DNA of 64,000 nucleotides from Escherichia coli (GCF_003018235.1 NZ_CP027439.1), one strand, 5' to 3'. Counted from the stretch's first letter, positions 17,615-29,139 are shown. Program-made: numbers and translations. The notes: generated by a model not told the origin, from the letters alone.

Positions 17615-17638
17615 TGGACAGAAAAACCTGAACGTCCA
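17615..17638 (+). repeat. Array site R0 (24-bp core-type motif)
   Basis: TGGACAGAA AAACCT GAACGTCCA. Confidence 0.75.
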
Positions 17639-18162
17639 ATATGGGGAAAGGATTACGTGACGGGGCGGGTTTGCTAGCAGTTCTGCGAACGTACCAGCGC
17701 ATCGAGGACTGGTAATGCCAGCAGGCTATTACGTCCGGGCTGGAAAATCGAGAGTTGCGATGATGACGAGGCAAGGGGATCGCAGACATTAACCTCTGCA
17801 ATAGAATATCTATTGCGTGATTTATTATAAATGTTATCCCTTTATTGTTTTCCAATTATCCCCGCAGTTGAAGAAATCAGCACTGAATAAAATTTTCAAA
17901 ATTTTATTCATGATGCTTACAAATAAATTAATGTAGATGAATCATCGGGATAGACTATTCTACATCAACTGCATTCTTAATTTTACGTCAAAATCAAGCG
18001 TTGCACTAAAATAAATCCTTACTAGAATAGCTATCCAGAAGAATCACCATGTATTCTTCAGTCTGACCCTCGGGCGCAGATTCTTGTTGTATTAAAATAT
18101 TGGGAAAATAAATCAGGAGTGAAAATGCAGTGACAGAGACACGTTACACAACGTCTGAAAGC

Positions 18163-18256
18163 AAAAAAGCCCTGAATAATCAGAGCTTTATTACTGGATT
18201 GGAAATGACGGCCATCAAATCCAATTCAAAACACACCAAAGGCATGTCCTCAAGTG
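18163..18256 (-). ncRNA. Candidate antisense sRNA (antitoxin) of module 1
   Basis: A minus-strand promoter reads TTGACG (18291-18286), 17-nt spacer, TATTAT (18268-18263). A minus-strand terminator has stem AAGCTCTGA/TCAGGGCTT followed by TTTTTT (plus-strand A run 18163-18168). The ends are approximate. Confidence 0.45.
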
Positions 18257-18339
18257 ATGAAGATAATAGAAAACTATTCAATCTACGTCAACCGAATGCC
18301 TGCGGTAACAATCCCAAAGCCGTTATCGGAGGTACGATT

Positions 18340-18441
18340 ATGTTGCCATTGCTCAACACGTTCATGAATGCCCCTCTTCTGAGTCAGGGGGCTACTATCC
18401 TGTTTCTTGGGCTTCTTATCCTTGCGCTCAAGAACCAGTGA
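18340..18441 (+). CDS. Candidate small hydrophobic toxin peptide, 33 aa (or 65 aa from in-frame ATG 18244)
   Basis: GGAGG lies 7 nt before the ATG. The product is MLPLLNTFMNAPLLSQGATILFLGLLILALKNQ, homologous to the 19340 peptide. A terminator hairpin (AGCTGGC-TTCG-GCCAGCT) follows. Confidence 0.5.
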   Translation: MLPLLNTFMNAPLLSQGATILFLGLLILALKNQ

Positions 18442-18475
18442 TCGCACTGAGCTGGCTTCGGCCAGCTTCTTTACT

Positions 18476-18499
18476 TGGATAGAATCACCTGAACGTCCA
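18476..18499 (+). repeat. Array site R1
   Basis: TGGATAGAA TCACCT GAACGTCCA. Confidence 0.75.
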
Positions 18500-18601
18500 G
18501 TCGGGCGCTAATTTATAATAAATGACCGTAGAAGGGCCATTTCTACGGCAAAGTTCTGGAGATGATAAAATAAGGGCCTTAAACAATAAAAGGGCTTGCT
18601 T

Positions 18602-19003
18602 ATGACACTGGACCAACTGCTTGAAATCCACGACTGCGCTGGGCTGAGCACCTATGAACAGGAAACAATTATATCTTTCATTAACCAGCGGCGAGGTGAC
18701 TTTGGTGTAAAAGCGTTTCCGGAAATTATGCCTCCAGTATCTTGCGGCTGGATCTCCAGAAGAACAAAACAACGTTCTCAGGAGCAGGCAGACGAAAATA
18801 GCTGGAATTATTATAAACAGAAGATTCAGGAATGGATAACGCTAATCGAATTGCATGAGGCATCACTTACTAGGGGGGAAAAGCTAAAGCGCTTTGTGGG
18901 AAAGCATAAATGGTGGTTAGGAGGCACTTGCGCAGTTATCGCATCAATTACAAGCACTGTGATAGCTAGCTGGATTCTTTCGTTATGGACTTGGGCTAAC
19001 TGA
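18602..19003 (+). CDS. Hypothetical tail-anchored membrane protein (133 aa), module 2
   Basis: Single ORF filling the R1-R2 interval, with a C-terminal hydrophobic helix (GGTCAVIASITSTVIASWILSLW). The stop abuts R2. Confidence 0.5.
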   Translation: MTLDQLLEIHDCAGLSTYEQETIISFINQRRGDFGVKAFPEIMPPVSCGWISRRTKQRSQEQADENSWNYYKQKIQEWITLIELHEASLTRGEKLKRFVGKHKWWLGGTCAVIASITSTVIASWILSLWTWAN

Positions 19004-19004
19004 C

Positions 19005-19028
19005 GTGACAGAAGCTGCGTTACGTCCA
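19005..19028 (+). repeat. Array site R2 (most divergent centre)
   Basis: GTGACAGAA GCTGCG TTACGTCCA. Confidence 0.55.
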
Positions 19029-19164
19029 AGTTGATAAAAAGTTGTTATCCACAGAGAACAGGGCGGTCATCCGGCGGGTTCAATAATATGATATTATTAC
19101 AGCACCTTAAAAAATAAGGATTGCGGACGGATGATATATTGATAAAGGATACTCATGCGTGTAA

Positions 19165-19262
19165 AACGCAAAATACCCTGAGTAATCAGGGTATTAAACG
19201 CGGAAAAGTAAAGGTTGAGCGCTTTACATTTTCCATTCACACCAGAGGCGTGACTAAATCTA
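19165..19262 (-). ncRNA. Candidate antisense sRNA (antitoxin) of module 3
   Basis: A minus-strand promoter reads TTGACG (19297-19292), 17-nt spacer, TAGAAT (19274-19269). A minus-strand terminator has the perfect stem AATACCCTGA/TCAGGGTATT followed by TTTTGCGTTTT. The ends are approximate. Confidence 0.45.
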
Positions 19263-19339
19263 AAATTGATTCTACGGCAACGTTCAATCTACGTCAAATC
19301 GCCAATGGTTTTCCTGTTATGAAAATTACCGGAGGCTTC

Positions 19340-19450
19340 ATGTTGTTAACCATCATCGACACCTATCTTCATGCTTCATTACTGACACAGATACTGGTAA
19401 TCCCGTTTATCTGTGCGGTGGTGTGGGCGGTAAAGAAAATCCGGGTATAA
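19340..19450 (+). CDS. Candidate small hydrophobic toxin peptide, 36 aa (or 66 aa from in-frame GTG 19250)
   Basis: GGAGG lies 5 nt before the ATG. The product is MLLTIIDTYLHASLLTQILVIPFICAVVWAVKKIRV. A 12-bp-stem terminator follows (AACATGGCTGGC...GCCAGCCATGTT). Confidence 0.5.
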   Translation: MLLTIIDTYLHASLLTQILVIPFICAVVWAVKKIRV

Positions 19451-19503
19451 CTTAAACATGGCTGGCTGAGAGGCCAGCCATGTTCAGTGAGTTTTGTTTC
19501 GAA

Positions 19504-19527
19504 TGGACAGAATAACCTGAATGTCCA
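19504..19527 (+). repeat. Array site R3 (consensus copy)
   Basis: TGGACAGAA TAACCT GAATGTCCA. Confidence 0.8.
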
Positions 19528-19645
19528 AGTTTGCAAGGAATTGTGATCGTACTACAACCAGTGTCAACCTTCCTATAATGCAGATAATCTTCTATAATTT
19601 CTTTTAATTCTGTGGCGATGTCATTAAGGAAAAGAGGTATTATTT

Positions 19646-19903
19646 ATGGGAAATAAACACATCAGCGCCAGTGAAGCTAAAAAGATTAGTTCTTCAGTGA
19701 TACCTGATGCAGACAAAACACTTGATATGATATTTGGAGGAATAAAGCTCCAAGCAAGATTGGGCCAGACATCCTTTATTTATCCTGTCCATGAAAACAT
19801 TCTTGAGCAAGTGGTCAAGGTTCTAAGGGAATCTGGTTATAGGATTAACTCATCGAAGGCTAATGAGAATAACAAATTTATTATTGAAATTAGCTGGCAG
19901 TGA
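19646..19903 (+). CDS. Hypothetical soluble protein (85 aa), module 4
   Basis: AGAGG lies upstream of the ATG. Two perfect TATAAT hexamers lie at 19574 and 19593. A terminator (AAGCCAC...GTGGCTTTTTTT) sits just before R4. Confidence 0.55.
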   Translation: MGNKHISASEAKKISSSVIPDADKTLDMIFGGIKLQARLGQTSFIYPVHENILEQVVKVLRESGYRINSSKANENNKFIIEISWQ

Positions 19904-19961
19904 AATAGAATCCGCTTTGTCTTTATTTTACCCTTGAAGCCACCCATTAGTGTGGCTTTTT

Positions 19962-19985
19962 TTGACAAGATTACCTGAATGTCCA
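19962..19985 (+). repeat. Array site R4
   Basis: TTGACAAGA TTACCT GAATGTCCA. Confidence 0.7.
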
Positions 19986-19998
19986 GGTAACGCGGGGA

Positions 19999-20445
19999 TT
20001 AATGAGAAGAATAGGTAGTTGGTATATTTAGCTTGAGTCCAATCTCCTTTATGAGATTGTAGGTATTTTCCTTACTGTTGCCAGCAAGTATTGAGGTGAT
20101 CTCATTAAGGTTTTGTGCTGCACCAAGAACTTCACCCTTTGATGGTACAAACTTCATACCTAAATAGCTTCTTTTTAGGCTACCAGGCAAGGCTGCATAC
20201 TTTGCCATTAACTGAGAAGCAGCATCTTTCAAATCGTGGATGGTTTCATGATTAGCTCTGAAATTTGTGATCGTCGCTTGCTCACGTAATAAAAGCGCTG
20301 TAATCCTCCCTAATTGTTCTCTGAATGATATATAAGGCTCAATGAATCTTTTTGCGATGAGTTGACCAACAACAAAAACGGTTACGCCGGTCAGAACAGT
20401 TACGGCAGCAGACGAACTCATAATTGTACCTAGTGACTGAATCAT
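19999..20445 (-). CDS. Hypothetical N-terminally membrane-anchored protein (148 aa), module 5; reversed relative to the sites
   Basis: One N-terminal TM helix (AAVTVLTGVTVFVVGQLIA) followed by a helical soluble part. It is the only long ORF between R4 and R5. Confidence 0.55.
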   Translation of the reverse strand: MIQSLGTIMSSSAAVTVLTGVTVFVVGQLIAKRFIEPYISFREQLGRITALLLREQATITNFRANHETIHDLKDAASQLMAKYAALPGSLKRSYLGMKFVPSKGEVLGAAQNLNEITSILAGNSKENTYNLIKEIGLKLNIPTTYSSH

Positions 20446-20482
20446 GGGGGTTATCCTATCTGGAGGGCAACAGCCTGTCTAC

Positions 20483-20506
20483 TGTACAGAAAATGCTGTA
20501 TGTCCA
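20483..20506 (+). repeat. Array site R5
   Basis: TGTACAGAA AATGCT GTATGTCCA. Confidence 0.6.
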
Positions 20507-20562
20507 GTCTGTGCTGGAATTATAATGGCAACCATGATCATCACAGGAAGAACGAGTAACAG

Positions 20563-21042
20563 ATGGCAACTGCGTGGGTGGATGTGGCTGATAATGCCGT
20601 AAAAATAGGTTTGGGGTCGTTGTTGACTATTTTAGGGGGGTGGCTGACTCTTAAGCTAACACAAAAGCACGAATTAAAAAAAGAAGCGGCAGTACAGGGA
20701 TTAAAAGATAAAGAAATAAAAACCAAACGATATGTGGAGTTTCTGACCTTGTCTCAATCTCTCATGCAAAAATATTTATATGAGCAGTGTGAAGCAAATA
20801 ACGATGATTATCTTGCCTATCTTCGCATACATAATGAGATAACGATCACGTCAGGTTTAGCCATAAGGAAAGCAGCATTTAAACTCCAGTTTGATGTTTC
20901 TACTTTCATTTTCTACAACAAAATACACGACACAGAACTCATTAATGCACTGAGGGATAAGGCTAGAAATTCTGTTTCCATGTTTCAGGCCATTGTGAAT
21001 GAGGAAATCTGCAACGGAAAGTTTGGCACAGCAAGCCAGTAG
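20563..21042 (+). CDS. Hypothetical N-terminally membrane-anchored protein (159 aa), module 6
   Basis: N-terminal TM helix (IGLGSLLTILGGWLTL), a Lys-rich linker, then a helical domain. The stop lies 4 nt before R6. Confidence 0.55.
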   Translation: MATAWVDVADNAVKIGLGSLLTILGGWLTLKLTQKHELKKEAAVQGLKDKEIKTKRYVEFLTLSQSLMQKYLYEQCEANNDDYLAYLRIHNEITITSGLAIRKAAFKLQFDVSTFIFYNKIHDTELINALRDKARNSVSMFQAIVNEEICNGKFGTASQ

Positions 21043-21045
21043 CGC

Positions 21046-21069
21046 TGGGCAGAATAACCTGAATGTTTA
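21046..21069 (+). repeat. Array site R6
   Basis: TGGGCAGAA TAACCT GAATGTTTA. Confidence 0.7.
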
Positions 21070-21118
21070 ACTGCCGGAGGAATTAACCGAGGGGCGTGAA
21101 AAGGCCGCTTACGCGGCC

Positions 21119-21491: not shown

Positions 21492-21527
21492 ACATCTTTG
21501 ACATTCGCGACGTCCGACCAGCCGAAC

Positions 21528-21551
21528 AGGATAGAACACCCTGAACATCTC
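21528..21551 (+). repeat. Array site R7 (terminal, right arm degenerate)
   Basis: AGGATAGAA CACCCT GAACATCTC. Confidence 0.5.
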
Positions 21552-21653
21552 GGCTGACTGTGCTTTCATTTTTAGTCGGTTAAGCAGACGCTTTTCTGTA
21601 ATTTCTTTCAGTTCAATGTAGCTGATACTTAACTTTTTGAAATAACTAATATT

Positions 21654-21941
21654 TCACCTCATTCGTTCGCTGGCAAGATTATAAACATCACTACGTTCAC
21701 GTTTCCCTACAGCAACAACAGCGATAACTAATTGATCATCAATCACCTGATAAACCAGGCGGAAGCCAGACGCACGAAGTTTAATTTTGTAGCAATCCTT
21801 TATCCCACGCAGTTTTGCTGATGGGATATGTGGATTTTCACTGCACTTCTTTAGCTTTTTAGCAAACTGCTGCTGAATTGCCTTATCCAGTTTTTGCCAT
21901 TCTTTCAGTGCATCTTCCCTGAATCTGACTGTGTAAGTCAT
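21654..21941 (-). CDS. stbE: RelE/StbE-family mRNA interferase toxin
   Basis: 95 aa. ALKEWQKL...LRG.KDCYKIKLR.SG.RLVYQVID...VGKRERS.VY matches RelE closely. It overlaps the upstream antitoxin gene by 4 nt. Confidence 0.9.
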   Translation of the reverse strand: MTYTVRFREDALKEWQKLDKAIQQQFAKKLKKCSENPHIPSAKLRGIKDCYKIKLRASGFRLVYQVIDDQLVIAVVAVGKRERSDVYNLASERMR

Positions 21942-22189
21942 AGGTAGCTATCCAGATCTACATCGTGCAGCTTCTGGTTGCTGCGTTCGGCGACCAGATT
22001 AACCAGTTCCTGATCGTCTAGGGCATCGAGCATCTTTTCATACAGTTCTGCGGGGACACAGTAAAAGGCGGGCTGGTTACGGTTCAGAATCGCGACTGGG
22101 TAACCATCACCGGCACTGACTGTCGCCATCGGGTTTTTTTTCAGTTCGCTGACACTGGCGCTAGTGTCACTCAGAATAATGTGGGGCAT
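21938..22189 (-). CDS. stbD: Phd/YefM/StbD-family antitoxin
   Basis: 83 aa with a Phd-type N-terminus (SVSELKKNPMATV). It is translationally coupled to the toxin gene. Confidence 0.85.
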   Translation of the reverse strand: MPHIILSDTSASVSELKKNPMATVSAGDGYPVAILNRNQPAFYCVPAELYEKMLDALDDQELVNLVAERSNQKLHDVDLDSYL

Positions 22190-22271
22190 AGGGCACCTTT
22201 AGAGACTATTTAACAGGTCTTTATAGTGTTCTAAAAAAGACCTCTTAACAAGTCTTTTTGTCATTTTACTC

Positions 22272-22316
22272 AATGTGCCGTAAAGCCCCGCCCTTCAGGG
22301 CGAGGAGGATGTCAAA
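22272..22316 (+). repeat. 45-bp hairpin-containing repeat, copy E1
   Basis: AATGTGCCGTAAAGCCCCGCCCTTCAGGGCGAGGAGGATGTCAAA. The second copy is at 26028-26072. Confidence 0.7.
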
Positions 22317-22412
22317 TAATAGGACCCCGAAAGGATTAGTAATGTGGCGTCTTTGCTACACAGGTGCTTTTGTAATATGTTGTATAGCGTACTCACTACA
22401 CAGGAGATGTGT

Positions 22413-22952
22413 ATGGCATTGTCACAGATCAGCGTTCGTATTGATGATGAACTCAAACAACGCACGGATGAAAAAATGAAACTGCTGAGAACCAACCCCA
22501 CGCAGGCCATTACGTTGCTCTATCAGTATATTGCTGAAAATGGGAAACTTCCCTTTACTGTCAGCACCCAACTCTTCACTTCAGAGGATTACACCCAAAA
22601 ATTAATCACCACAGTCAGATCTATTTATGAATACTGGCGCGCGCTTTCTGAGACATCAGCAACAACCAGAACGAAAAGTGGAATGGCCTATTCAATGGCA
22701 ATGGCAGCACATGTTTCGAAGCTGCACAGCGATCTGATACACAACTGCGGCACCTTGAGTGGTGAAGAAGTTGCCTCATTAATGATTGTTATGGAGGACA
22801 TTCTTTCTACGCCGCCATCTTTTTATCGCGGAGAAGCGCCCGATCAGGTGTTTCAGGATAAATTAAACGCTGCTGACCAAACTATTCTGATGATTGAAAA
22901 ATGTCATGGTATGAATGTTCAACGCGGGGAAAATTTTTACGCTCTCAGATGA
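22413..22952 (+). CDS. RelB/DinJ-like ribbon-helix-helix protein with a ~120-aa C-terminal extension
   Basis: The N-terminus MALSQISVRIDDELKQRTDEKMKLLRTNPTQAITLLYQYIAENGKLPF is DinJ/RelB-like. CAGGAG lies 6 nt before ATG 22413. There is no adjacent toxin ORF. Confidence 0.6.
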   Translation: MALSQISVRIDDELKQRTDEKMKLLRTNPTQAITLLYQYIAENGKLPFTVSTQLFTSEDYTQKLITTVRSIYEYWRALSETSATTRTKSGMAYSMAMAAHVSKLHSDLIHNCGTLSGEEVASLMIVMEDILSTPPSFYRGEAPDQVFQDKLNAADQTILMIEKCHGMNVQRGENFYALR

Positions 22953-23085
22953 ATGCACTGAATATGCAACAGCCCGTAAGGGTTTTTTTTGTGTACGCAG
23001 GACAGTTAATCCTAGTGTCCAGTGTGGAGCGGAAGTTACGTAACATTTGACGTAAGTATTTTTGGGATACTTATGAACTGAAATA

Positions 23086-23105
23086 AGATTTCGCATGCGA
23101 AATCT
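23086..23105. promoter_or_regulatory. Candidate parS/operator palindrome P1
   Basis: AGATTTCGCATGCGAAATCT, a perfect 20-bp palindrome. Confidence 0.6.
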
Positions 23106-23304
23106 ATTGCGTATCATTATTGATACTCTATGATTTCTCTGTATACTGTTCATATTGTCATGAACGTATGGCAACAAACGCAGTAGTAGATAGCTGCTTC
23201 TGCATCTTGGCGCAACGCCTGACTCACAGGAGTGTGTATGAAATACCGCAATGAATTCATATCATTACAGCAATACTTTTTCAATCCGCGCCGCCCCCTC
23301 TCAA

Positions 23305-23324
23305 ACATTTCGCATGCGAAATCT
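23305..23324. promoter_or_regulatory. Candidate parS/operator palindrome P2
   Basis: ACATTTCGCATGCGAAATCT (16-bp perfect core), 14 bp upstream of the parA start. Confidence 0.6.
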
Positions 23325-23337
23325 TAAGGACTGTTAC

Positions 23338-24204
23338 ATGACACTGAAAATTGGACCTATCGGAAAATTAATCGTTATATGTAGCCAGAAGGGCGGAATC
23401 GTAAAATCGCAGTCATCCAGCGAAATAGCATATGATCTTCGAGAATCAGGTTTTCGTGTGCTTGAAATTGATATGGACTGGACTACTGGTCTGACAGAGA
23501 GAGCTTTCCCCGATAGCTTACCCTATGAGATAGAGCGCGAACCTTTAAGTAACAGTTTTACACCCGGCGAAGCGAATACATATCAGCTTTTCTTCCCGGA
23601 CACTGAAGTTCGACCGATTGAGCTTCCTGGCGGGCGTTTTTTTATTGGCGCTACCAGTGAGCTTAATGAAATTAACTACCGCAACAGCGACTGTATGTTC
23701 GACTTCAGAGACCGTATTGAAGAACTGAAGAAACAGTTTGATTTTATTATTGCTGATTCAGCGCCATCATATTCAAACGTTATGATCGCCGCACATATGT
23801 CAGCTGACTATCTTCTGATCCCTACTCTGTTGGAGAAGCAGGCCCGAAATGCAGTTGGTAAACAGCTTACTTACATGCAAAAAATAAAACGGAACTATAA
23901 TCCATCGTTGCAGTTTATGGGCACTTATGTGACCCAAACACCGGTAAAAAATTATAAAAAGCCGCTTAAAGAAGGGTATTTGGGACCTATTGATACACTG
24001 AATCTGAATCTACTCATTGAGATCCTTCAGGGAAAAGGATATTCCGAAGAGTACATTCTTGCCTATATATCATTTGTACCTGCTGCTGCCAAAGAAGCGA
24101 TAGAACTTGGCCTCTCATTTGATGAATATGATCCTAAGTGTCTTCCTGCAATTCAGTATAAAGAGCTTACCCAGAAAATTATTCAGATCGCAGGAGATAA
24201 ATAA
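23338..24204 (+). CDS. parA: ParA/SopA-type partition ATPase
   Basis: Deviant Walker A motif SQKGGIVKSQSS and Walker B motif FIIADSAP. AAGGA lies upstream of ATG 23338. The longer ORF from 23251 would read through palindrome P2. Confidence 0.85.
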   Translation: MTLKIGPIGKLIVICSQKGGIVKSQSSSEIAYDLRESGFRVLEIDMDWTTGLTERAFPDSLPYEIEREPLSNSFTPGEANTYQLFFPDTEVRPIELPGGRFFIGATSELNEINYRNSDCMFDFRDRIEELKKQFDFIIADSAPSYSNVMIAAHMSADYLLIPTLLEKQARNAVGKQLTYMQKIKRNYNPSLQFMGTYVTQTPVKNYKKPLKEGYLGPIDTLNLNLLIEILQGKGYSEEYILAYISFVPAAAKEAIELGLSFDEYDPKCLPAIQYKELTQKIIQIAGDK

Positions 24205-25235
24205 TGGCCAAGAAACCGTTTATGAAACGACTCAAGGCGCAGCAGGAAATGAAAAAAAACTCTGCTGTTGTCTCTGATATTGAACAAGTCATTGCAAATA
24301 AACAGCCAGATGAGAAGAGCCATGACGTATCTGCGCACCAGATTTTGACAGATATTTCCCGCCCGGTTCTTGAACCTGATGGACAGATAATCCGCGTCGA
24401 TATAAACCTGGTTTATGCTGAGGAACAAGTACGACCTGAAGAAGATTTCGATGAAGAGGTTATCGATGGTATGGCAGATACTTTCGAAACCATAGGGATG
24501 CTTACCCCGCCTCGTTGTTATCCCCGCGACAGACGTGGATACCAGATATGGTTAGGAGAAACACGAGTTCGTACTGCACGTAAACGTGGTGATACCCATA
24601 TTGATATTTATGTCGGTAAACCACCACGAGAAAGAAAAGAACGAATCATTGGTCAGCTCATTGAAAACCTTCAGCAATCGGGTTTAAAACCATTAGCGAC
24701 TGCAAGATCGTTCTATGAACTTAAGCATCACTTCAATATGACGGGTGAACAGATCGCAAAAACGATGGGTAAACCAACCTCATTTGTCAGTAAACATCTT
24801 CGTCTCATTGATGCTCCAGAGAATGTTACCGCCCTTCTCCGGGATAAAGTGACATCCGATATTGATTTGGCTTACACACTAATACAGGTAAATGAAAGGG
24901 CTCCTGAAGAAGCCGAGAAGCTTATTGCAGCTGCGCGGGAATCTGGTATTTCACGCGCGCAAGTTAAAGCTGTTCTTGATGAGGTTAAGAACAAAAGCAA
25001 CCGTGAGATTTCGCATGCGAAATCTAAAGCTCAGAATAAAAGGCCATCCAAGTCTCTTAATAACAATTCAGATGTAAAAAGCTGGCAGGTAGTTGTCGAG
25101 ATTGACGGTCAGCAGGGAGTAATAATGACCGACCGTGCGCCAGAGGAAGATGGCTATGTGTGGGTTAAATTAGATATTGGTGAAATATCCGTCGAGGCTT
25201 CAGAGGTTCGTGTCAAGGGAATGCGGTCTTTGTGA
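24204..25235 (+). CDS. parB: ParB-family partition/centromere-binding protein
   Basis: It is coupled to parA (TAATG). It carries a ParB N-terminal-type box (IWLGETRVRTARKRG) followed by an HTH-like region (GEQIAKTMGKPTSFVSKHLRL). Confidence 0.8.
   Translation: MAKKPFMKRLKAQQEMKKNSAVVSDIEQVIANKQPDEKSHDVSAHQILTDISRPVLEPDGQIIRVDINLVYAEEQVRPEEDFDEEVIDGMADTFETIGMLTPPRCYPRDRRGYQIWLGETRVRTARKRGDTHIDIYVGKPPRERKERIIGQLIENLQQSGLKPLATARSFYELKHHFNMTGEQIAKTMGKPTSFVSKHLRLIDAPENVTALLRDKVTSDIDLAYTLIQVNERAPEEAEKLIAAARESGISRAQVKAVLDEVKNKSNREISHAKSKAQNKRPSKSLNNNSDVKSWQVVVEIDGQQGVIMTDRAPEEDGYVWVKLDIGEISVEASEVRVKGMRSL
25006..25025. promoter_or_regulatory. Candidate parS palindrome P3, inside the parB coding sequence
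   Basis: AGATTTCGCATGCGAAATCT, encoding EISHAKS. Confidence 0.6.
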
Positions 25236-25672
25236 TGAAATCAACCCCATTCACTGAAATGGCCACTGCATTCCGTGGCCAAATTGTCCGTCTCTGGGCG
25301 CTTCGATATCCCGGAACTCAATCCGAAGCAGCTGCTGCATTAACAGAAGCTGCTATCAATCTTGGATACGTTACAAGAAGTAGACCTGTGCCTGGAGCAG
25401 CCTTATTATCATGGTTATCGAATCCCGCTGAAACGCCTCTGTGGGCGGCTCAGACCGCATTAACGATGATGCTCAAGATTGGCTGGAAGCCAGAGAGTAA
25501 TCAAGAATGGTGTGGGATGTCGGCACTGATATTCAGAGCTAATCGTAAACTTTCACTTGAACTGTTAGTTGCATCCTTGCCTGATAGTATAGACAGGCAA
25601 ACTGCTACAGGATGGTTTGTGGCTGCAATAGAAGAAGATGCCCACTACCGTTATAACAGGAAATTCAGATGA
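25232..25672 (+). CDS. Hypothetical protein (146 aa), translationally coupled to parB
   Basis: GTGATG overlap with the parB stop. No motif was recognised. Confidence 0.55.
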   Translation: MMKSTPFTEMATAFRGQIVRLWALRYPGTQSEAAAALTEAAINLGYVTRSRPVPGAALLSWLSNPAETPLWAAQTALTMMLKIGWKPESNQEWCGMSALIFRANRKLSLELLVASLPDSIDRQTATGWFVAAIEEDAHYRYNRKFR

Positions 25673-25992
25673 CCTTTCAGGAGCTTGATGCTTGTATTGC
25701 TGGCTCTGGTAGGCGTTCTATCGCTTCAGCGTTAATCGCTTTTATTCTCGATGCGTTTGATGATGGACAGGACGGAGTTGATCTTGATTCTTTCCAGAGC
25801 CAGATGCGCTTCGTTCGCAACAATGTAACAACCGTAGCCAACTATCTGCAGCGACAGGGGGTTCTCCATATACTGTATTACCGTGATGGTGCCGCAGAAC
25901 GTCAGTATGAGACCGTTAATAATTATGGACGATGGGCAAAACAGCACTATCGTCCTTCTCAGGCACTTATTCAGTTGCACCGCCGTAATTAA
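25669..25992 (+). CDS. Hypothetical protein (107 aa)
   Basis: ATGA overlap with the previous ORF. No motif was recognised. Confidence 0.55.
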   Translation: MTFQELDACIAGSGRRSIASALIAFILDAFDDGQDGVDLDSFQSQMRFVRNNVTTVANYLQRQGVLHILYYRDGAAERQYETVNNYGRWAKQHYRPSQALIQLHRRN

Positions 25993-25993
25993 A

Positions 25994-26021
25994 GCAAAGA
26001 TTTCGCATGCGAAATCTTTGC
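25994..26021. promoter_or_regulatory. Candidate parS palindrome P4 (extended 28-bp perfect palindrome)
   Basis: GCAAAGATTTCGCATGCGAAATCTTTGC, immediately after the operon. Confidence 0.6.
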
Positions 26022-26027
26022 TTACCT

Positions 26028-26072
26028 AATGTGCCATAAAGCCCCGTCCTTCTGGACGGGGAGGATGTCAAA
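26028..26072 (+). repeat. 45-bp hairpin-containing repeat, copy E2
   Basis: AATGTGCCATAAAGCCCCGTCCTTCTGGACGGGGAGGATGTCAAA. Confidence 0.7.
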
Positions 26073-26074
26073 GG

Positions 26075-27349
26075 TCATCGTATCATTGCCACCGGGAGGT
26101 CAGTCCAGCGTGTCGTATATGCTGGTGACAACATTTCGCGCTTCATTTGCCACTCAGGAGCTATGCCTCGCCCCGCAAACCACACTTTCCCAAGTCCAGA
26201 ATGGTTAATACCGTCCACGACTTTCATCAATTGATTACTGTTGCTTCGGGGCAGAGTATCATCAAACAGATTCAACTGTGAAACTCCGGTCGGCGTAAAA
26301 TCGTTCAGCATGCAGCCTGCCCTTACATAGCGGTGGCCATTCACCCAGATCCTGTCCAGGGCTTTGACGGCAGCGGCAATGATGTCCGGTGTATCCTGCG
26401 TGGGGATGAGCAGCTTTTCACTGGCCAGATTACCGTAGTAGGGCTCATTTACGGCAAACGGCGATGTTTTCACAAATACGACAATATGCCTGCAGAACTG
26501 CCGTTCGCCGCGCAGCTTTTCCGCAGCACGCTCAGCGTACTGACAGACTGCCTGACGCAGGGCTTCATACGTTGTGATACGCTCCCCAAAAGACCTGCTG
26601 CAGACAATCTGCTGTTTCGGCGGGGGAGCTTCTTCAAGCGAAATACAGCTTTCTCCGTTGAGTTCCCGGACCGTTCTCTCCAGTACAACGTTGAAATTCT
26701 TCCGGATAAATACGGGGTTCGCGCGCGCCAGCTGCAGTGCAGTGGTGATGCCCATTGTGCTTAGTTTCCTGGATATCCTGCTGCCAACTCCCCAGATTTC
26801 TTCCACCGGCTGCAGTGAAAGCAGTTTCTCCGTTCGTTTCGGATTGTGTGATGTCAGGGCAAGCACACCACCGAATTGTGGCCATTCCTTGGACGCCCAT
26901 TGCGCGCTTTTAGCCAGCGTTTTGGTTGGCCCCATCCCGACACCTATTGTCAGCCCCGTTCCTGAGCGCACGTGTTCGCGTAGCTGCCGCCCAAAGTCCT
27001 CATAGTCGATGCAGTTGTCTATACCACGGATATCGAGAAACATCTCATCGATGCTGTACTGTTCCACACGTGGCGCCAGCTCTTCTAGGTGAGTCATCAC
27101 CCTGTTAGACATGGACGCGTACAGCTCGTAATTGCTTGAGAACACGATGATCTGCTCAGAGAATTCCGCCTTCTTCAGTTGAAACCACGGCACTCCCATT
27201 TTGATACCCAGCAACTTCGCTTCTTTTGAACGGGCGATAACGCAACCATCATTGTTACTGAGTACCACAACCGGCTTGTTTCGCAAATCAGGTCGAAATA
27301 CTTTCTCGCAGCTGGCATAAAATGAATTCACATCAGCGAGCGCAAACAT
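26075..27349 (-). CDS. umuC: Y-family translesion DNA polymerase subunit (UmuC/MucB/ImpB type)
   Basis: 424 aa. [22 protein letters not shown]...[14 protein letters not shown] and the full length are collinear with UmuC. Confidence 0.95.
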
Positions 27350-27901: not shown

Positions 27902-28019
27902 GAACCGGTGCATAACCCTGTGAGTTGATATCCGCTCTGCTCTGAAGGACAGGGTTTTTCGGCGGATTAGGTAAAGTCTACTGTATGCGACATTTTGATT
28001 TAGTTTTTTCCACTGGCTA

Positions 28020-28251: not shown

Positions 28252-29139
28252 ATGTCTAATAAAATCAATGAACAATTCCTGAATATCAAGGAAATTAACA
28301 AGCGAACGGGAGAAGAGCTCACGCTTATATCCACAAGTGAGTCCAGTGTTCAGGTAGTTCCGTTGATGCGCCTTGGTGTTTTTGTCCCGACTCTTAAAGG
28401 GACCGATAAAGCTAAAATTACCCGCAATACCGTTGATGCTTCGAAAGATTTTAATACGCTTTCGCTCTACAGCTCTGAGGGATTCGAGAAGGTCATTATT
28501 AGTGGTCCCCGACTTGATATGGACACTGATTTTAAAGTTTGGGTTGGCATAATTTCCGTTCTGACAGACAGTGATCATCCGATCACCAAAGAAGGAAAAA
28601 TCGTGATACCTTTCAGCGAATTTGCGCATCGCTGCGGATTCCCACGGGGGAGGATGAAACAGGAACTTCGCACTCGCCTGAAAGACTCGATAAAGAAGAT
28701 TATGTCCACAATTGTCGAATTTTCGAAAGACTCCGGGAAACCAACAGAGAAGACGCAGATGGTGCAACTCATGGGGGAGTCCACAATAGACATTGGTAAT
28801 GATCTTGTTCTGCTTACACCCAGTATGTCTTTAAAAGATCTTTACGCCAGTGAGTATAAAGTCCTGCTCAAGCTAAAAGCGCTAAAAAGCCTGGCTCGTA
28901 AGGAGTCTGCTCAGGCTCTGTATCTCTATTTGGAAGGTCTGCCCACAAATCCTGCTCCAGTTAGTATTAAGCGTTTTCGCGAACGTCTCAACCTTACATC
29001 CAGAACTGCACTGCAGAATGCCACCATTAAGAAAGCTCTAAAGCAGCTGGAAGAAATTGGTTATCTGGAATATCAGGAAATGAGGAGTGGCAGGGACATC
29101 GCGTTTAATATCATCAAACGTAATCCGAAGCTTCAGTAA
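28252..29139 (+). CDS. repA: Iteron-binding replication initiator, RepFIB/RepHI1B-like
   Basis: 295 aa. The blocks VPLMRLGVFVPTLK, ISGPRLDMDTDFKVWVGII, RKESAQALYLYLEGLP and EIGYLEY match my memory of RepFIB RepA. Confidence 0.9.
   Translation: MSNKINEQFLNIKEINKRTGEELTLISTSESSVQVVPLMRLGVFVPTLKGTDKAKITRNTVDASKDFNTLSLYSSEGFEKVIISGPRLDMDTDFKVWVGIISVLTDSDHPITKEGKIVIPFSEFAHRCGFPRGRMKQELRTRLKDSIKKIMSTIVEFSKDSGKPTEKTQMVQLMGESTIDIGNDLVLLTPSMSLKDLYASEYKVLLKLKALKSLARKESAQALYLYLEGLPTNPAPVSIKRFRERLNLTSRTALQNATIKKALKQLEEIGYLEYQEMRSGRDIAFNIIKRNPKLQ

Follow-up and report, generated by a model that had tools for sequence, protein, structure and literature searches.

Three 46-bp hairpin repeats around the parAB and umuDC genes of an Escherichia coli IncF plasmid as probable remnants of IS609-like elements

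Three short hairpin repeats, E1, E2 and E3, occur in a 64,000-nt stretch of Escherichia coli DNA (GCF_003018235.1, NZ_CP027439.1; hereafter the window). Comparison of their sequences indicates, with a probability of about 0.9, that they are core-deleted ('terminal-only') remnants of IS609-like elements of the IS200/IS605 family. The repeats thus belong to a known, ordinary type of transposon remnant rather than forming a signal special to the border of the partition-gene block. An earlier note had described E1 and E2 as two near-identical direct hairpin repeats at 22272-22316 and 26028-26072, and the sequences at these positions match those quoted there. The description was confirmed, since E1 and E2 are identical at 39 of 46 positions without gaps, both on the plus strand, and a degenerate 45-mer search allowing up to three mismatches found these two sites only in the window and zero sites in 100 dinucleotide-preserving shuffles. 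A repeat search lengthened the pair to 51 nt (22266-22316 and 26022-26072, 86% identity, repeat family D10). The natural borders enclose 46 nt in each copy, preceded by TTAC and ending in TCAA. The features are as follows.

22266..22269, plus strand: TTAC, target and left cleavage tetranucleotide of E1, read in the sequence and abutting the 5' side of E1
22270..22315, plus strand: E1, probable terminal-only IS609-like element of 46 nt, its ends matching a full-length IS
22270-22285, plus strand: left-end linker of E1, closing with the guide AAAG
22286-22293 and 22298-22305, plus strand: stem arms of E1, with a C.A mismatch at pair 3
22294-22297, plus strand: loop TTCA of E1
22306-22311, plus strand: AGGATG of E1
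22312-22315, plus strand: TCAA, right cleavage site of E1
26022..26025, plus strand: TTAC, target tetranucleotide of E2, read in the sequence
26026..26071, plus strand: E2, probable terminal-only IS609-like element of 46 nt, its ends matching a full-length IS
26042-26049 and 26054-26061, plus strand: stem arms of E2, a perfect 8 bp, with loop TTCT and followed by AGGATG
26068-26071, plus strand: TCAA of E2
27925..27970, minus strand: E3, a decayed 46-nt copy, with TTAC at 27974-27971 and TCAA at 27928-27925

The origin of the repeats is indicated by a full-length 1748-bp IS with tnpA and tnpB on an IncI2 plasmid, since the left half of the unit corresponds to its left end and the right half to its right end. 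This IS begins with CCAGTGCGCCGTAAAGCCCCGTCCTTCAGG directly after TTAC and finishes with CCACGTCCTTCAGGGCGTGGAGGATGTCAA. Its TnpA matches the Pfam family Y1_Tnp (E 3.5e-42), its TnpB matches OrfB_IS605 and the Cas12f1-like TNB domain, and a 94% identical chromosomal copy is named IS609 in the RefSeq annotation. By blastn, left-end positions 2-37 align with 22271-22306 (86%) and right-end positions 1716-1748 with 22283-22315 (88%) in E1; in E2, positions 5-37 align with 26030-26062 (88%) and 1716-1748 with 26039-26071 (85%). [quoted passage not shown] The earlier note had named mapping to the end of a known mobile element as the outcome against its idea of module-border repeats, and this is what the alignments with both IS609-like ends revealed; of the origins it had listed, insertion scar was the correct one. 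No parent IS with the exact stem variant of E1 or E2 was retrieved, the nearest full-length ends being 85-88% identical, and tblastn found no tnpA or tnpB in the window. Relatives are present in 5015 of 5426 E. coli genomes. The guide and target co-vary, with TTAT and AAAA in chromosomal IS609 and TTAC and AAAG in the IncI2 copy, E1 and E2. In the full-length copies, the tetranucleotide 5' of the right-end hairpin is GAAT or GGAT. Copies of the unit in prophages are exact IS609 chimeras, in which the left-end 5' arm (CCCC...) is joined to the right-end 3' arm (...GTGG), the signature of a hairpin-to-hairpin deletion.

The unit consists of 12 nt and the guide AAAG, an 8-bp stem with a TTCA or TTCT loop, and AGGATG followed by TCAA, all directly 3' of TTAC. 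TTAC precedes E1, E2 and E3, AAAG lies 5' of the stem in E1 and E2, and the end of TCAA lies 10 nt from the stem foot both in all three and in the full-length copies. Terminal inverted repeats and target-site duplications are absent; the flanks read TTTTAC, E1, ATAATAGG and GCTTAC, E2, AGGTCATC. The stem-loops are CCCCGCCC-TTCA-GGGCGAGG in E1 and CCCCGTCC-TTCT-GGACGGGG in E2, as quoted in the earlier note, but the E1 stem is imperfect because of the C.A mismatch, which fits a chimeric hairpin origin as in the prophage copies. Folded as single-stranded DNA, E2 is better than shuffled sequences (-10.4 kcal/mol, z -2.9), whereas E1 is not (-6.0 kcal/mol, z -0.5). The C/T and G/A differences between E1 and E2 lie on opposite sides of a single base pair, and had been taken as a compensatory change that showed preservation of the hairpin. 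Preservation holds for the family, since 88% of stem cells are paired among 29 distinct copies and both-sided changes occur at 4 pairs, but a compensatory change as a single event in place does not hold. Across copies this pair is T.G in 12, C-G in 10 and T-A in 1; T.G is the commonest state, and E1 and E2 are therefore each one step from it. E1 and E2 most likely go back to separate insertions, by family members that had diverged, and the hairpin is apparently kept as a recognition structure for TnpA, conserved across a large family. The tail AGGAGGATGTCAAA, noted earlier as resembling a Shine-Dalgarno sequence with ATG, is instead the conserved right terminus of the IS. A ribosome-binding site with start codon was rejected for it, because the string is conserved at the DNA level in IS termini, archaea included; the reading frames that start from the ATGs at 22309 and 26065 are unconvincing, and one runs antisense to umuC. 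Readings of the flanks as sigma-70 (-35 TTGACA), sigma-54 (TGGCAC) or XerC/D sites were likewise set aside, since by eye the spacing or half-sites misfit and they leave the IS-end homology unexplained.

IS200/IS605 elements transpose as single-stranded DNA, with a subterminal hairpin at each IS end as the recognition structure of the Y1 transposase TnpA. TnpA cuts the left end on the top strand, 3' of a target tetranucleotide, here TTAC, which is read by way of AAAG, the guide immediately 5' of the hairpin, and cuts the right end after TCAA, 10 nt 3' of the right-end hairpin. The two hairpins, with CGTCCTTCAGG in common, are near-identical direct repeats, and recombination or replication slippage between them may have deleted tnpA, tnpB and all else. 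The product would be a left linker, one chimeric hairpin and a right tail, 46 nt in all. Each copy would stem from its own earlier insertion at a permissive TTAC between genes. The copies are probably now essentially inert DNA, because the window has no tnpA or tnpB and one hairpin cannot fill both TnpA dimer sites. No full-length IS and solo unit were found at the same site in different plasmids, so that deletion in place and transposition of an already minimal element are not separated. A search around a prophage solo revealed no base-exact empty site and gave only 18 genomes with the same locus, partial nleD-flank matches and IS609 left ends. With a synthetic query for a solo at the ydcL-ydcO site, one strain showed a stretch of poly-G and then part of the right-end 3' arm with the tail, which is probably an artefact of assembly; of the 2135 genomes with at least 80% query coverage, many carry another element, IS200C, at this site (24 of 25 among the matches listed).

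Similar structures are known from haloarchaea. Palindrome-associated transposable elements (PATEs) include terminal-only forms of 52 bp, which result when repeat-mediated deletion removes the core of IS605-type transposons, such as the core-deleted form of HqIRS46 and the remnant of ISHwa23 in Haloquadratum walsbyi (PMC3119063). Fused left-right end units with an 8-bp stem and a UUCA tetraloop are common in haloarchaea, for example VNG_R0052 of Halobacterium (PMC4615843). These remnants of about 52 bp date from reports of 2011 and 2015 (PMC3119063, PMC4615843). The units described here are likewise tens of bp long (46 against 52), with a left linker, a single near-terminal palindrome (8-bp stem, TTCA loop) and a right tail, and lack inverted terminal repeats, target duplication and coding capacity; in both cases the origin is ascribed to repeat-mediated deletion between near-terminal palindromes. 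They differ in having 12 nt rather than 14 nt before AAAG, in their IS609-like parent, and in their hosts, an enterobacterial IncF plasmid, E. coli prophages and plasmids generally instead of haloarchaeal chromosomes. IS608 inserts 3' of TTAC, has AAAG as its left guide, and carries TCAA 10 nt 3' of the hairpin foot (PMC3201880), the same arrangement as in E1 and E2. E1 and E2 correspond to ~36 nt from the start and ~33 nt from the end of an IS609-like element, but unlike IS609 and IS608 they lack tnpA, tnpB and the omega-RNA scaffold and have one hairpin instead of two. They are therefore not autonomous and probably not normal substrates of a two-end transpososome. REP/BIME sequences, which are associated with RAYT (TnpA-REP), also consist of short hairpin repeats that are dispersed between genes and related to the end hairpins of IS200/IS605; however, E1 and E2 are homologous to both ends of an IS609-like element and have TTAC and TCAA, and REP/BIME form high-copy chromosomal arrays, whereas the unit is of low copy on mobile DNA.

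The unit is widespread, with matches in 675 plasmid records and in 735 of 5426 E. coli genomes (948 places, often prophages). It also occurs in other Proteobacteria and in haloarchaea, always with unrelated flanks; its borders are sharp, and an alignment of six copies showed a core of ~50 nt between unrelated flanks. In species-representative genomes, haloarchaea included, 36 loci carry the unit. These loci, one plasmid copy, E1 and E2 make up 39 tabulated copies, chosen by pattern, of which 32 have TTAC 11-14 nt upstream of AAAG. Copies in Salinarchaeum and Halorubrum share the 34-nt core of E1 without a difference. We found no paper describing the enterobacterial copies, and the IS609 literature gave only routine mobile-element listings. 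Binding of ParB or DinJ was rejected as a function, because the unit occurs elsewhere with neither gene nearby. A separate 20-bp palindrome, present four times, belongs to the partition region.

A functional RNA or transcription element, such as a minus-strand intrinsic terminator or 3'-end stabiliser (a GC hairpin, then CUUUAUGG) that at E2 ends umuDC, is a very unlikely explanation of the repeats. The placement of E2 relative to palindrome P4 and the umuC stop had been reported correctly. The TTAC of E2 overlaps the final 2 nt of the 32-nt palindrome 25992-26023, and 3 nt separate its right border from the umuC stop (TCA, 26075-26077). On the umuC strand, E2 thus starts 3 nt past the stop and forms a perfect GC stem of 8 bp with CUUUAU after it (-20.9 kcal/mol, z -2.4), and a Klebsiella copy lies just downstream of a chorismate mutase gene, as E2 does beside umuC. 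However, a terminator scan of 21500-26600 on both strands found six terminator-like sites, none of them at E1 or E2, which were not called because the T-tract is too short; no U-rich tract directly follows the hairpin, the minus-strand tails being CTTTATGG and CTTTACGG. E1 lies between two divergent promoters with no minus-strand gene upstream, orientation relative to nearby genes is not constant (one prophage copy is downstream of nleD on the same strand), and relatives end the same convergent genes with the palindrome alone. Termination also does not account for the conserved TTAC, AAAG and GGAGGATGTCAA or for the homology to both IS ends. Among Rfam families, the only matches were sub-threshold ones to HgcC/sot, and these correspond to the IS right-end hairpin. 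HgcC (RF00062) gave 32.2 bits for E2 and 25.2 bits for E1, against a gathering threshold of 50 bits, and a true full-length IS right end scored 32.7. The hairpin and tail align to the 3' end of the model (CCccCGcccUUuAgggCGggGAGGAGGUCAG), a resemblance to the 3' hairpin of HgcC, sotRNA and the TnpB omega-RNA, but only this last hairpin and tail match and the scaffold is absent. A terminator-like effect at E2 is possible as an incidental one; for a remnant, any present effect may be of this kind, such as an additional GC hairpin where the umuDC transcript ends.

E1 and E2 had also been said to delimit a 3.8-kb unit, which is not supported. They might act as a pair, either as crossover sites that delete this block or as a composite single-strand transposon (E1 left, E2 right) carrying dinJ-parAB, and we regard this as extremely improbable. 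The two are on the same strand, as left and right ends require; TTAC, AAAG and the hairpin are intact in E1, as are the hairpin and TCAA in E2, and E1 and E3 lie at seams of backbone modules. However, the order parA-parB-orf-orf-umuC is kept in many plasmids without the E2 stretch, so the block was not delivered between E1 and E2, and the block flanked by both was seen only in a single plasmid lineage, at a constant position. The longest run of perfect identity within the 39 of 46 matching positions is 13 nt, too short for efficient RecA recombination. The tetranucleotide 5' of the E2 hairpin is the left-end guide AAAG rather than the right-end GAAT or GGAT, which makes right-end cleavage at E2 doubtful, and no tnpA for such a pair was found in the window by tblastn. 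Relatives with the parAB-umuC synteny, two of which have the same flanking genes as at E2, lack the stretch; E2 is therefore probably an insertion, although the empty site is approximate and not base-exact, as the spacer has diverged in these 87%-identical relatives.

The third copy likewise speaks against a unit delimited by two repeats, as do the hundreds of copies in unrelated contexts. E3, overlooked in the earlier note, lies upstream of umuD, with the umuD promoter region on one side and the RepFIB module on the other. It matches the family consensus at 36 of 46 positions (best of 100 shuffles, 29) and E1 and E2 at 32-33 of 46, and its hairpin has decayed in single-stranded DNA folding. 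The homology upstream of umuD to Klebsiella and Citrobacter plasmids stops at the TCAA end of E3. E1 and E3 are at homology breakpoints between backbone modules and not at clean indels, a position that simple insertion alone does not predict. The suggestion that the repeats might mark borders of variable segments was borne out for E1, which sits at such a seam. Position is also what suggests that the 46-mers might not be inert: IS609 TnpA may mobilise them alone or as same-strand pairs, or they may be a stable loss form of the IS605 family, or TnpA decoys. We consider this unlikely. If mobilised, they would help to join plasmid backbone modules, explaining why E1 and E3 are exactly at homology seams. 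Nearly every E. coli is a source of IS609 TnpA. As a stable loss form, core deletion would part the TTAC motif from the right flank, and the site would escape the cleavage of vacated sites by TnpB and omega-RNA. As decoys, they would parallel the TnpA decoy role proposed for haloarchaeal PATE RNAs.

Our analysis, on the reading of the repeats as remnants, allows three unannotated 46-bp stretches here, and hundreds more in plasmids and prophages with no feature under the match, to be labelled as IS609-type remnants, which need not be pursued as regulatory or partition signals. The value of this is modest and current understanding is unchallenged. The remnants would be traces of earlier IS200/IS605 insertions between the phd-relE, dinJ, parAB, umuDC and RepFIB modules. 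The terminal-only PATE, known in haloarchaea and predicted for bacteria, appears to be common on enterobacterial mobile DNA, with its 34-nt core almost unchanged.

The two hairpin repeats E1 and E2, which bracket the dinJ-like/parAB block, have the positions and sequences quoted in the earlier note. With up to 3 mismatches permitted, a degenerate 45-mer search matched only these two in the 64 kb, with no match expected by chance (100 dinucleotide-preserving shuffles), and an independent repeat search recovered them as a 51-nt family with 86% identity (22266-22316 and 26022-26072). E2 has a perfect, GC-rich stem of 8 bp with a loop of 4 nt, and the E1 stem is the same except for one C.A mismatch. 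Folded as single-stranded DNA, E2 reaches -10.4 kcal/mol (z -2.9) and E1 just -6.0 kcal/mol (z -0.5). Both copies share the layout TTAC, 12 nt, AAAG, stem-loop-stem, AGGATG TCAA, and exactly 10 nt separate the TCAA end from the hairpin foot. The borders are therefore 22270-22315 and 26026-26071, 46 nt each, and the terminal string, taken in the earlier note for an SD-ATG-like sequence, is the conserved right terminus of an element. A third copy, E3, agrees with the family consensus at 36/46 positions, where the best of 100 shuffles reached 29. The features of the region are as follows.

21654-21941, minus strand: relE/parE
21938-22189, minus strand: phd/yefM, then E1
22270-22315, plus strand: E1, 46 nt, TTAC 5' border and TCAA 3' border
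22413-22952, 3' of E1: gene with a RelB/DinJ domain (Pfam RelB)
ending at 25235: parA and parB, then two small ORFs ending at 25992
after the two small ORFs: a palindrome, then E2
26026-26071, plus strand: E2, 46 nt, TTAC 5' border and TCAA 3' border
26075-27349, minus strand: umuC
annotated from 27349, minus strand: umuD
27925-27970, minus strand: E3, 46 nt, a decayed remnant of IS609 type between umuD and RepFIB repB
28252-29139: RepFIB repB

A full-length counterpart of these termini is present on an IncI2 plasmid, where annotated IS200/IS605 tnpA and tnpB genes lie 2 kb from a short copy. The full-length element there is 1748 bp long, with GTTAC followed by CCAGTGCGCCGTAAAGCCCCGTCCTTCAGGTCGGGG at its left border and GGAATCCACGTCCTTCAGGGCGTGGAGGATGTCAA followed by AGGG at its right border. 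Its transposase is of the Y1 type (PF01797, E 3.5e-42), and its TnpB has OrfB_IS605 and Cas12f1-like TNB domains. Of 5426 E. coli genomes, 5015 contain relatives about 94% identical to it; in one such relative RefSeq labels the transposase 'IS609 family' and the tnpB gene insQ. In blastn, the four top matches of the element in the window fall on E1 and E2: positions 2-37 and 1716-1748 both align to E1, and 5-37 and 1716-1748 both align to E2, overlapping at the hairpin in each case. Such overlap of left- and right-end matches shows that E1 and E2 are the two ends of an IS609-like element joined through a single hairpin. No tnpA or tnpB protein of this insertion sequence is encoded in the window (tblastn). 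The Rfam HgcC model gave sub-threshold plus-strand scores of 32.2 bits for E2 and 25.2 bits for E1; the right end of the full-length element itself scored 32.7 bits, also sub-threshold and equal to E2, and the alignment was confined to the terminal hairpin and tail. Gomes-Filho et al. described an 8-bp-stem UUCA 'RE-like tetraloop', also within HgcC, and reported that fused left end-right end units are common in haloarchaea, predicting bacterial counterparts (PMC4615843). Dyall-Smith et al. defined palindrome-associated transposable elements (PATEs), in which 52-bp 'terminal-only' (core-deleted) forms arise by repeat-mediated deletion between two near-terminal palindromes of IS605-type transposons; ISHwa23 was thus reduced from 1500 bp to 52 bp, and such forms might remain mobilisable (PMC3119063). 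The observation of the earlier note was correct, and E1 and E2 are 46-bp terminal-only IS609-type remnants of a known mobile-element family, a kind of element already described before these copies.

The anatomy agrees with this assignment. In IS608, TTAC serves both as target and for cleavage at the left; it lies 19 nt from the hairpin foot on the 5' side and is read by the guide AAAG directly 5' of the hairpin (PMC3201880). Target and guide covary in the copies studied here, being TTAT and AAAA in chromosomal IS609 and TTAC and AAAG in the IncI2 element, E1 and E2. This covariation illustrates in nature the guide-directed choice of target that experiments have demonstrated in IS608. Neither E1 nor E2 has a target duplication, and flanks rejoined by exact loss of the 46 bp would read TTAC followed by ATAATAGG and TTAC followed by AGGTCATC.

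The repeat is a dispersed element rather than a local one. In a plasmid-database search for further copies, the E2 53-mer was matched in 675 plasmid records, with at least 80% of the query covered at one place in 439 of them. Among 5426 complete E. coli genomes, 735 match the E1 59-mer, at 948 places in all, and 607 of these places are chromosomal. The flanking contexts are unrelated to one another. On IncI2 plasmids copies separate hok from repA, a large IncFIB plasmid of Salmonella Infantis has one beside IS26, and pSE11-3 also carries the element. In Klebsiella a copy follows a chorismate mutase gene, and in E. coli prophages copies follow nleD or lie close to a gene of the hok/gef family. 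Six aligned copies (alignment A1) share about 50 nt of conserved core, sharply bounded on both sides by unrelated sequence.

The earlier note proposed that the two repeats delimit a 3.8-kb unit. This does not hold on the E2 side, where plasmids 85-87% identical over parA-parB-orf-orf-umuC lack the E2 stretch and run from a conserved palindrome through a short diverged spacer to the umuC stop (A2). That synteny also contradicts a paired recombination site or composite transposon formed by E1 and E2, as do the single genomic location of the E1-E2 block and the left-type guide that precedes the E2 hairpin; we regard this reading, though mechanistically conceivable, as highly improbable. E1 does lie at a segment boundary, as had been suggested, since homology of the relatives spans the phd promoter and ends at TTAC, beyond which they carry another repeat motif and no dinJ-like gene (A3). 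Upstream of umuD, homology to Klebsiella and Citrobacter plasmids ends at the TCAA end of E3 (A4). Of the three copies in the window, E2 is probably a plain insertion, and E1 and E3 lie at seams between backbone modules. The seams may be merely permissive intergenic DNA, or they may record recombination involving full-length elements. The TCAA ends of E2 (plus) and E3 (minus) point toward umuDC, which the two copies flank.

The E1-E2 region is 99.7% identical to pDEC5B-4, an IncF plasmid from E. coli O55:H7. The dinJ-like product has 179 aa and an N-terminal RelB domain (residues 4-50) as its sole domain, and no toxin gene is adjacent to its gene (22413-22952). The gene and about 85 nt upstream form a small module also found beside mer genes on pKOX_R1 and on a Citrobacter IncR plasmid; this module of gene and promoter occurs elsewhere alone, and some 11-14 nt separate the start of its homology from E1, on the right side of E1 (A5). 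Four copies of a perfect palindrome of 20 bp, AGATTTCGCATGCGAAATCT, are present, one with 1 mismatch (23086-23105, 23305-23324, 25006-25025 and 25998-26017), where none is expected by chance. They lie upstream of, within and downstream of the parAB operon and are probably parS/ParB-binding sites of this partition system. The palindrome P4, noted earlier beside E2, is one of them and is kept in relatives without E2. A further motif, TGGACAGAAtaACCTGAAtGTCCA, is present in about 7 copies 0.5-1 kb apart at 17615-21084; in two related plasmids (L010, L013) it lies just after the phd promoter, the place of E1 and the dinJ-like gene here.

Across 29 distinct copies, 88% of stem cells are paired, and both-sided changes occur at 4 stem pairs, a number reached in 0/500 shuffles. 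The structure of the hairpin is thus conserved, which bears out one part of the proposal that selection has preserved it. The other part, a compensatory double change between E1 and E2, does not stand: at that pair the family has T.G in 12 copies, C-G (the state of E1) in 10 and T-A (that of E2) in 1. A single substitution thus separates E1, and likewise E2, from the commonest state, with no double change in place. The hairpin could also be read as a minus-strand terminator at E2, because E2 is placed after umuC and the minus-strand hairpin is followed by CUUUAU. We consider this unlikely, as a terminator scan calls none at E2, no gene lies upstream of E1 on the minus strand, copies differ in orientation, and the conserved termini would be left unexplained.

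As for the origin of the terminal-only remnants, chromosomal IS609 has CCCCGTCC/GGGCGGGG as the arms of its left hairpin and CCACGTCC/GGGCGTGG as those of its right hairpin. The prophage solos, short single-hairpin copies without tnpA and tnpB, have CCCCGTCC/GGGCGTGG, the left 5' arm with the right 3' arm, and this chimeric stem is mismatched at its third pair, where E1 has its C.A mismatch. A solo would be produced by deletion from the left hairpin to the right hairpin, leaving a chimeric stem, and the E1 mismatch appears to fit such an origin. Queries with sites around a prophage solo and with ydcL-ydcO found no site at which one replicon has the full-length element and another the solo. The ydcL-ydcO region carries IS609 in some strains and, at nearly the same position, IS200C with different ends in many others (such as strain 7/2). 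Strain HH45 shows what is probably an assembly artefact, in which a poly-G run precedes part of the 3' arm and tail of the right end of IS609.

The family extends well beyond E. coli. A pattern of AAAG, parts of the stem, TTC and GGAGGATGTCAA inside 34 nt matched 36 loci in species-representative genomes, many of them in haloarchaea and others in Yersinia ruckeri, Trabulsiella, Paraburkholderia and Ectothiorhodospira. Among 39 tabulated copies (these loci, one plasmid copy, E1 and E2), TTAC lies 11-14 nt 5' of AAAG in 32, and 4 of the other 7 have one-base variants (GTAC twice, TCAC and TAAC). The 34-nt core of E1 (22282-22315, AAAG to TCAA, C.A mismatch included) is identical in Salinarchaeum laminariae and a Halorubrum sp., an unusually strong cross-domain conservation of IS200/IS605 ends.
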